The notes under the pieces were generated by a model. That model did not search any database. It had not been told where the DNA came from and saw only the letters and a program-made list of their open reading frames with translations. A DNA stretch of 34,734 nt from a virus (lineage: Duplodnaviria > Heunggongvirae > Uroviricota > Caudoviricetes), in the IMG/VR virus record IMGVR_UViG_2531839454_000020; one strand, written 5' to 3'. Shown here piece by piece: positions 3,671 through 3,724 of this stretch. A program made the position numbers and the translations under genes. The stretch's first letter is position 1, and every line of letters starts with the position of its first letter.

Positions 3671-3724
3671 CCAAATAGATAAAAAATTCTCGTTATAAAT
3701 AATAGTGAACTTACTTGATTCACT
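3671..3724 (+). promoter_or_regulatory. conserved promoter-like element CCAAAT-N17-TATAAATA-ATAGTGAA plus inverted repeat (copy 1 of 2)
   Basis: CCAAAT 3671..3676, TATAAATA 3694..3701, AGTGAA 3704..3709 pairing with TTCACT 3719..3724; second copy at 30451..30515. Confidence 0.45.

Follow-up and report, generated by a model that had tools for sequence, protein, structure and literature searches.

A T4-late-like TAAATA box precedes transcription units of a temperate enterobacterial prophage family and may join promoter function to ribosome-site occlusion

The present study asks what is signified by a short conserved element that stands before two unrelated genes in IMG/VR record IMGVR_UViG_2531839454_000020, a 34,734-nucleotide (nt) stretch of DNA (hereafter the window) that holds nearly all of a temperate, lambda-like siphovirus-type prophage of ~36 kb. 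The core of the element is the octamer TATAAATA, which in the late promoters of T4-type phages occupies -13 to -6 (PMC1524935), and a first-pass annotation of the window had proposed that the element may mark a specific transcription class with a coupled hairpin. Patterns detected here are consistent with a T4-late-type promoter class with promoter-embedded ribosome-site occlusion, residing in a temperate prophage without gp55, and we hold this reading at a probability of roughly 0.55. Under it, T[A/C]TAAATA would be the recognition element of a phage-specific promoter class, placed at -13 to -6 and lacking a -35 box, and the DNA directly 5′ of the start would encode RNA complementary to the Shine-Dalgarno (SD)/AUG region of its own gene. 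Transcripts reading through from upstream would then fold and hide the ribosome site, by a 12-bp stem at copy 2 and by AAUUCUC/GAGGAUU at copy 1, and transcripts begun at the box would be without the 5′ arm and translatable.

Both copies exist exactly as the first-pass annotation described them, that is, as CCAAA(T/A)-N17-TATAAATA and as the degenerate 17-mer TTATAAATA(A/G)TAGTGAA (coordinates in Table 1). The search with this 17-mer that had been suggested there yields these two as the only exact matches in the window and seven matches when up to three mismatches are allowed, against 0.49 expected, with none of 100 shuffles reaching seven. The idea of an element confined to two copies did not survive. 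A 12-mer, TAAATANTAGTG, recurs exactly at 646 and with one mismatch at 5997 on the minus strand, relatives in IMG/VR carry two further exact copies (site E, before a gene for a 64-amino-acid (aa) protein, and site F, TTATAAATAATAGTGAG, at the relatives' left end, where an insertion sequence (IS) has removed the site from the window), and TAAATA is found at about 18 intergenic sites of the window. Copies 1 and 2 are the most similar members of this family of ~18 boxes and not an isolated pair. TAAATA, usually as T[A/C]TAAATA, is in fact the commonest hexamer in the non-coding upstream regions of the window and is present in 15 of 24 of them, with 16 sense and 4 antisense occurrences in 1705 nt where 3.5 +/- 1.8 are expected; none of 2000 dinucleotide shuffles reached 16. 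The boxes lie 26-77 nt 5′ of start codons and are co-oriented with the downstream gene, and the flanking host genes, taken as a control, hold one sense TAAATA in 1816 nt. The same bias is seen in a complete E. coli relative (15 sense, 3 antisense) and in relatives found via a 201-aa protein of the prophage, namely in Proteus columbae (12/2), Salmonella enterica (10/3) and a second E. coli lineage (11/3). A box precedes nearly every transcription unit of the prophage, non-structural, regulatory and accessory genes included.

Conservation is centred on the hexamer. At every one of the 18 sites compared, all or almost all unique variants retain TAAATA; four of these sites are backed by just one or two relatives, and the flanks vary, most of all upstream. 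The copy-1 box is unchanged in 20 of 21 unique relative sequences and the copy-2 TAAATA is retained in all eight unique relatives. In two relatives (L041 and L043) the sequence 3′ of the terminase box is unrelated, with TAAATA still 36 nt before the start codon, and non-homologous accessory genes are likewise headed by a box. An alternative explanation could be that a regulatory module of ~70 bp was duplicated or recombined and that the wider TAAATA pattern is an AT-rich intergenic bias. Copies 1 and 2 are indeed ~73% identical (hand count) across the 41 bp that begin with TTCCAAA and close with the 17-mer, more alike than other sites, and the leader of the Proteus copy-1 equivalent has the 13-mer TTTTCGAGGACAC in common with a copy-2 variant, so common descent of modules is real. 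But descent would account for the pair and not for the family: the sense/antisense bias is 16:4, no shuffle reached the count, the host flanks hold a single sense copy, and the box is conserved across genera and in non-homologous contexts. As a complete explanation duplication is thus highly improbable and largely refuted; it still holds as the reason why copies 1 and 2 look alike.

For these two copies we suggest one module of promoter, 5′ untranslated region and SD, of common descent and reused before unrelated genes, because TTCCAAA, the extension (A/G)TAGTGAA across the start site and GAGGATT..CACTA occur in both. TTCCAAA varies in relatives (TTTCAAA, TTTCATA) and is missing from one form of copy 2 (in L018 and L024), and it more likely reflects the common descent of two regulatory modules than a -35 element. 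The extension, (A/C/G)TAGTG, covers -5 to +1, and its conservation is good at copy 1 and weaker at sites E and F; it may be read as start-region sequence common by descent, possibly with a regulator site in addition. The repeats TAGTGA..TCACTA were inspected as sites for CRP, ArgR, Fur, LexA or H-NS and rejected, as the spacing of the arms varies (2, 9 and 15 nt) and the half-sites misfit. A promoter for a single-subunit, T7-like RNA polymerase, an idea raised by the 17-bp conservation, was rejected as well, there being no unassigned open reading frame (ORF) of polymerase size. Rfam, run over the entire window, gave nothing at gathering score, and a literature search with the 14-mer gave nothing related.

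What kind of promoter the box might be was judged from 38 unique sites of three genera, a set in which TAAATA is invariant through site choice. The base 5′ of TAAATA is A in 25 sites, C in 7, G in 3 and T in 3. Many T4-like phages have A or T at -13, and the late promoters of Aeh1 read CTAAATA (PMC1524935). No conserved hexamer that could serve as a -35 box is present at any fixed distance 5′ of the 38 sites, where there is just T-richness. A pyrimidine-purine step falls at the fifth and sixth base after the box in 27 of 38 sites, compared with ~8 at other offsets (binomial p ~7e-11, a value inflated by homology among the sites of the three genera). As this step is the preferred start dinucleotide of RNA polymerase and stands at the T4 late offset, it is the strongest single clue. 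Transcription is predicted to start at the sixth base after the box, G3707 at copy 1 and G30487 at copy 2, and the T3706/G3707 step of copy 1 matches the family-wide signal. The start had been placed ~8 nt downstream of the box in the first-pass annotation, and the step moves the prediction to 6 nt; the view of TATAAATA as the T4-type late-promoter consensus, taken there from the octamer, gains from these features, as the box appears to behave as a T4-late-type promoter element.

It is possible that these are ordinary host sigma-70 promoters with an odd -10 hexamer, TATAAA, aided by AT-rich upstream DNA or by a conventional activator, with the likeness to T4 a coincidence. TATAAA agrees with TATAAT at five of six positions, the upstream DNA is T/A-rich, and at copy 1 a simple scan finds a 9/12 sigma-70-like match, TAGATA-16-AATAAT. 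Sigma-70, however, reads the A at -11 and the T at -7 most strictly, and in this register all 38 sites have A at the would-be -7, whereas just 25 of them (66%) have A at the would-be -11; in every register one key sigma-70 base fails, the boxes carry no TGn of an extended -10, and the invariant bases reach to -6/-5. The missing -35 box at a fixed distance also speaks against it, and the same genomes keep textbook TTGACA/TAnnnT promoters at places where sigma-70 is evidently at work, in the window as TTGACA-17-TATACT (2856..2828) and TTGACA-17-TATGAT (4231..4259). This explanation is accordingly unlikely, and the box would define, as had been proposed, a class of its own apart from the canonical sigma-70 promoters of the phage.

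Rather than promoters, the boxes could be operators or stoperators bound by a phage repressor or regulator, perhaps one of three helix-turn-helix (HTH) paralogues, that blocks initiation or elongation in the lysogen. Stoperators of mycobacteriophage L5 gp71 and operators of P1 C1 are dispersed asymmetric repressor sites. The resemblance is that many oriented, asymmetric, intergenic sites occur in a temperate phage; the sites here are co-oriented with transcription, some of them show conservation over 15-17 bp, the phage encodes three small HTH paralogues, and site D falls at roughly +4 to +10 relative to a conserved sigma-70 promoter, its box 10 nt 3′ of it, so that the two are either tandem promoters or a promoter with a box in operator-like position. 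Yet the family-wide core is just 7-8 bp, much shorter than the L5 and P1 sites and than the 13 bp or more expected of a stoperator, the boxes have start-site-like features, and the clearest early sigma-70 promoters (2856..2828 and 4231..4259) are boxless and embedded in conserved TTGACA palindromes. An operator would not predict a pyrimidine-purine step at a fixed 5/6 nt, nor a distance of 26-77 nt to the start codon, nor boxes placed directly after intrinsic terminators, as at 12900, 19464 and 28160, where re-initiation makes sense. We consider the operator explanation rather unlikely. Likely real immunity operators of this prophage are found instead in the TTGACA palindromes: a perfect 18-bp palindrome, CATTGACAGTTGTCAATG, at 2841-2858 forms back-to-back TTGACA boxes, its pattern TTGACA-NN-TGTCAA being preserved among relatives in E. 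coli and Salmonella, and further TTGAC[AC] boxes lie at 4205-4290, around the promoter at 4231..4259.

The second component of the favoured reading is the pairing between promoter and ribosome site. An inverted repeat ending at the start codon had been described for both copies, and this is so at copy 2, where it runs into the AUG, and not at copy 1, where 21 nt separate its end from the ATG. The stem at copy 2 is confirmed, with the SD in its loop as had been noted, and has a length of 12 bp instead of the 10 bp first given. Its 5′ arm, ATAGTAGTGAAT (30479-30490), overlaps the box from its ATA onward and the predicted start; its 3′ arm, ATTCACTACTAT (30506-30517), spans the SD-AUG spacer and the AU of the AUG; and the SD, GAGGA (30502-30506), is in the loop with a one-base overlap with the arm at A30506. 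The stem has a folding energy of -14.9 kcal/mol (z = -4.3). The long RNA folds at -16.4 kcal/mol and the RNA from the predicted start at -5.0, and truncation to that start raises the predicted accessibility of the translation-initiation region from 0.18 to 0.41. At copy 1 the pairing partner is an anti-SD segment 5′ of the box, and in the Proteus equivalent UUCUCGA pairs with UCGAGGA, which amounts to covariation. The copy-1 hairpin AGTGAA/TTCACT was rejected as a functional structure and is probably not one, having z ~ -0.5 and being lost in relatives through AGTGTA or loss of the 5′ arm, with no compensating change.

Similar arrangements occur at other boxes. At 29361 the SD is inside a 12-bp stem (-15.3 kcal/mol, z = -4.8), at 6649, before the terminase gene, the stem has z = -2.7, and at 12900 the stem is weak (z ~ -1) and its anti-SD arm covaries with the SD across genera (CTCC/GGGG, CTCCT/AGGAG, TCCC/GGGA). 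Over the family, the segment that overlaps the box or follows it pairs with the SD/AUG region better than in permuted site pairs (p ~0.001), and the DNA 5′ of the predicted start, taken as -16 to +11 with the first T of TAAATA as reference, pairs with its own translation-initiation region at -8.5 kcal/mol, compared with -6.2 +/- 0.6 in permutations (0 of 3000). The 5′ arm would lie upstream of the promoter's own start and be absent from promoter-initiated RNA, a placement that depends on the predicted start position, and because of it the most fitting view is that the hairpin acts on read-through transcripts. A structure of the promoter's own RNA or a processing signal is less likely. The coupled hairpin of the first-pass annotation thus stands in part: a translational role is suggested at copy 2, the copy-1 hairpin is neither significant nor conserved, and the RNA-processing role offered alongside is the less likely one.

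That processing role would make UAAAUA an AU-rich site of RNase E type beside a protective 5′ stem-loop, at which polycistronic RNA is cut into stable gene-sized mRNAs. Stems that start inside the box or 0-11 nt after it at many sites (29361, 30476, 6649, 5997) and the number of sites within the long late operon would suit it, but boxes also head units with no co-oriented transcription upstream, for example the 201-aa gene in its 87-bp divergent gap, and in L041 and L043 the divergent boxes stand back to back with no space for separate promoters. The stems would still hide the SD after the cut and so leave the genes silenced. The pyrimidine-purine step, with its constant distance, bears the mark of transcription initiation, and RNase E sites do not typically contain an invariant hexamer. 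It would be surprising if processing were the explanation.

Several points weigh against a T4-late-type promoter class with an occlusion device. Promoter function, start position and translational switch are all read from sequence, and the p-values given above are higher in truth than stated to the extent that the sites of three genera are homologous. The gain in accessibility across all sites is modest (p 0.02-0.04). Some gaps within the late operon are very short and a promoter at each seems excessive, the box of site D just 3′ of a good sigma-70 promoter is where an operator might be, and many hairpins begin at or within the box, which is equally apt for an element acting in RNA. The window also yielded no gp55-like or sigma-like protein: T4 gp55 gave E = 1.7 as its best tblastn value against the window and E > 3 with phmmer on all ORFs of at least 40 aa, neither Pfam nor PHROGs assigned any scanned window ORF to a sigma family, and AlphaFold2 (AF2) models of the 201-aa and 149-aa proteins are neither of them sigma-like. 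The first-pass remark that siphovirus-type structural genes here go with no gp55-like sigma in the window is borne out by the same searches (E > 1 by tblastn and phmmer; no Pfam or PHROG sigma match).

The search for a factor leaves few proteins to consider. Alignment of gp55 with the 201-aa family by hhalign gave a probability of 0.1%, and for gp33 and the gp45 clamp there was no PHROG or Pfam match in general scans of the window ORFs, no direct gp33 or gp45 query having been made. Among the window ORFs scanned with Pfam and PHROGs there were no matches to antiterminators or repressors either, and nearly all non-structural proteins are unannotated, the exceptions being a Rha-family regulator and a match to a PHROG ‘endonuclease’. 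Non-structural proteins common to E. coli, Salmonella and Proteus are the 201-aa protein, two small paralogous HTH proteins, a protein of ~150 aa and a coiled-coil protein of ~320 aa; the Rha-family gene and a 110-aa gene are not universal among relatives. For the 201-aa protein, AF2 gives a tandem HTH of two helix-turn-helix-plus-hairpin modules with weak ParB/KorB-like matches only. For the 149-aa protein (predicted local distance difference test, pLDDT, 69) it gives an alpha/beta fold of generic P-loop-kinase-like type, followed by a disordered acidic tail. Sequence searches of PDB with the 201-, 149- and 331-aa proteins returned nothing useful. The 149-aa protein is the product of the gene at 3746-4195 behind copy 1, and it has a conserved acidic C-terminal tail and no visible Walker A motif. 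The 64-, 77- and 201-aa proteins, encoded at 2306-2500, 5729-5962 and 5991-6596 on the minus strand, appear by eye to share an HTH-like module (GRPxxF ... GIS..FY..KK), apparently in two copies in the 201-aa protein; each of the three genes is behind its own TAAATA box, and the family reaches Salmonella and Proteus. More broadly, but with less confidence than an even chance would warrant, we propose for this Enterobacterales prophage family, which in E. coli sits in hicB, that most transcription starts from T4-late-type promoters [A/C]TAAATA, 6 nt downstream of the box, with a factor unrelated in sequence to gp55 and with the promoter-in-hairpin device. Such a factor would be either a second, independent route to the reading of TATAAATA or an analogue of gp55 diverged beyond recognition.

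Compared with T4-type late promoters, the box family has the same octamer, tolerates the same exchanges (at -13 A or T, at -12 the C known from Aeh1), and has no -35 box with a predicted start 6 nt after the box, and many copies before individual morphogenesis genes, often right after terminators. It differs in its host, a temperate siphovirus-type prophage with a serine integrase and not a T4-like myovirus, in that T4-type late promoters are read by gp55 with gp33 and the gp45 clamp and no gp55 homologue was found in the window, and in that boxes here also precede regulatory and accessory genes, a subset carrying the (A/C/G)TAGTG extension across the start. The occlusion device has a parallel in T4 genes e, soc, 49 and I-TevI, where read-through RNAs hide the ribosome site and late-promoter RNAs are without the 5′ strand of the helix, and T4 homing-endonuclease genes are controlled by the same hiding of the ribosome site (PMC3014915). 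At copy 2, likewise, the 5′ arm overlaps box and predicted start and the 3′ arm covers spacer and AUG, promoter-side DNA is complementary to its own translation-initiation region family-wide, and the genes that follow are a 96-aa gene and a nuclease gene of MUG113/T5orf172-like type. Unlike in those T4 genes, the copy-2 SD is in the loop and not in the stem.

A short conserved unit of promoter and stem-loop before unrelated, often accessory genes, in some copies with a terminator next to the promoter, also recalls the promoter-early stem-loop (PeSL) ‘mobile regulatory cassettes’ of T4-type phages (PMC2839356), but PeSL promoters are strong, sigma-70-like and early, and the boxes here are not. 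PeSL-type recombination at the motif was rejected on the one insertion/deletion examined, at 30265-31468, whose breakpoints are in a short KEPE / PEDLELDL coding repeat and outside the motif. Copy 2 and the 96-aa gene belong to this cassette, together with the C-terminal half of a 133-aa ORF and most of the gene for the 222-aa MUG113/T5orf172-like nuclease. The complete relative L049 and many others are without the cassette, and just 18 of the 58 E. coli carriers have the copy-2 region. A precedent is phage rV5, which has neither gp55 nor gp33 nor gp45 and whose late genes are preceded by a T4-late-like motif (PMC3606486). The resemblance to the prophage is an enrichment of such boxes 5′ of late genes without the T4 late-transcription proteins; the differences are that rV5 is a virulent myovirus of large size and that its motif (TggTAaAAtA) is looser.

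The prophage itself is one of a sizeable group. Pfam and PHROG scans of the window show a lambda-type gpA terminase with portal, a protease-capsid fusion, siphovirus tail genes, T4-like tail-fibre domains, an endolysin and a large serine recombinase, and recognisable replication, repressor or antitermination genes were not found in the prophage. Of 5426 complete E. coli genomes, 58 carry a prophage related to it at 80-95% nucleotide identity, and related prophages occur in Shigella, Salmonella and Proteus. In the complete relative (L049 8441-44241, E. coli 2014EL-1346-6) a prophage of 35.8 kb splits the antitoxin gene hicB, presumably by insertion through the phage's large serine recombinase. 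There is no close free-phage relative in the phage collection searched: the copy-1 region had no megablast match among 50,697 phage records, and the best phage match of the large terminase is 43%, to the 141-kb coliphage DCP80. A scan of genome contigs with the large terminase gave no confirmed locus. Positions 1 to ~270 of the window are the IS element, the end of whose transposase gene adjoins the left arm of the prophage.

Some further features lie around the boxes. Downstream of site A, conserved as listed in Table 1, there is no convincing ORF and a terminator at 812-827, and a small RNA of ~170 nt (646-830) is possible. A terminator-like hairpin at 2525-2541 on the minus strand follows the box of site E by 5-8 nt and has equivalents in L050-L052; its stem covaries across genera (GAGGGC/GCTCTT, GAGCG/CGCTC, AGAGC/GCTCT, AGAGCG/CGCTCT), and its role may be that of an attenuator or that of terminating transcripts from upstream. 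The gene-free stretch of ~1.2 kb 5′ of copy 1 (2500-3745) contains six iteron-like direct repeats AAACCTACAC(T) at 3051-3172 and four occurrences of AAAGGGATTGG at 3077, 3359, 3433 and 3502; these repeats could be an origin, a cos or pac site or a regulator array.

Table 1. Coordinates in the window of the two starting copies, their pairing segments and the other boxes.
Feature	Position	Strand	Description
Copy 1 (site B)	3693..3709	+	17-mer TTATAAATAATAGTGAA; core box TATAAATA 3694-3701; ATG 3746
Copy 2 (site C)	30473..30489	+	17-mer TTATAAATAGTAGTGAA; core box TATAAATA 30474-30481; ATG 30516
TTCCAAA	3669-3675 (copy 1), 30449-30455 (copy 2)	+	same spacing to box in both
Copy-1 anti-SD AATTCTC	3685..3691	+	5′ of box; pairs with GAGGATT 3733-3739 in fold of read-through RNA
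Copy-1 inverted repeat AGTGAA/TTCACT	3704-3709 / 3719-3724	+	ends 21 nt before ATG
Copy-2 hairpin	30479..30517	+	12-bp stem, AUAGUAGUGAAU (30479-30490) with AUUCACUACUAU (30506-30517)
Site A	646..657	+	(AC)TAAATAATAGTG; 12-mer TAAATANTAGTG exact at 646; conserved in 16/16 unique relatives
Site E	2550..2557	-	TATAAATA before 64-aa HTH gene
Site E′	2750..2757	-	TATAAATACATGCATG; same extension before other genes in Salmonella and Proteus relatives
ATAAATA box	4661..4667	+	before Rha-family gene
Site D	5986..6000	-	TCTAAATAAAAGTGA; one-mismatch copy of 12-mer at 5997; before 77-aa HTH gene
Sigma-70 promoter TTGACG-18-TAAAAT	6008..6037	-	hexamers kept, spacer diverges in L041 and L043
Divergent box, minus	6630..6623 (first T of TAAATA at 6628)	-	GATAAATA; before 201-aa gene
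Divergent box, plus	6647-6654	+	AATAAATA; before large terminase gene
Late-operon box (CTAAATA type)	8623..8628	+	in gap before gene at 8664
Late-operon box	12900..12905	+	directly after terminator that follows capsid gene; CTCC next, pairs with SD
Late-operon box	14475..14480	+	before tail-fibre gene
Late-operon box	18896..18901	+	before major tail gene
Late-operon box	19464..19469	+	directly 3′ of terminator behind major tail gene
Late-operon box	22642..22647	+	in hairpin loop after tape-measure gene
Box	28160..28165	+	after tail-operon terminator; before gene block 28204-30105 ending in endolysin gene
Box	29361..29366	+	3′ ATA begins 12-bp stem hiding SD of gene at 29395
TATAAATA box	33785..33792	-	before 139-aa secreted-protein gene

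If the boxes are promoters, transcription of the T4 late type, directed by a -10-like octamer alone and without a -35 box, would extend beyond T4-like phages and beyond gp55. A small and tractable E. coli prophage would then hold a factor that reprograms host RNA polymerase, the candidates for it would be only five or so conserved non-structural proteins, and the switch formed by a promoter inside the hairpin would be a general phage design and no peculiarity of T4. Were the boxes operators or processing sites, the meaning would be more ordinary, yet the regulatory code of the family would still be defined. The motif is a ready annotation rule for the transcription units of an otherwise uncharacterised prophage family.

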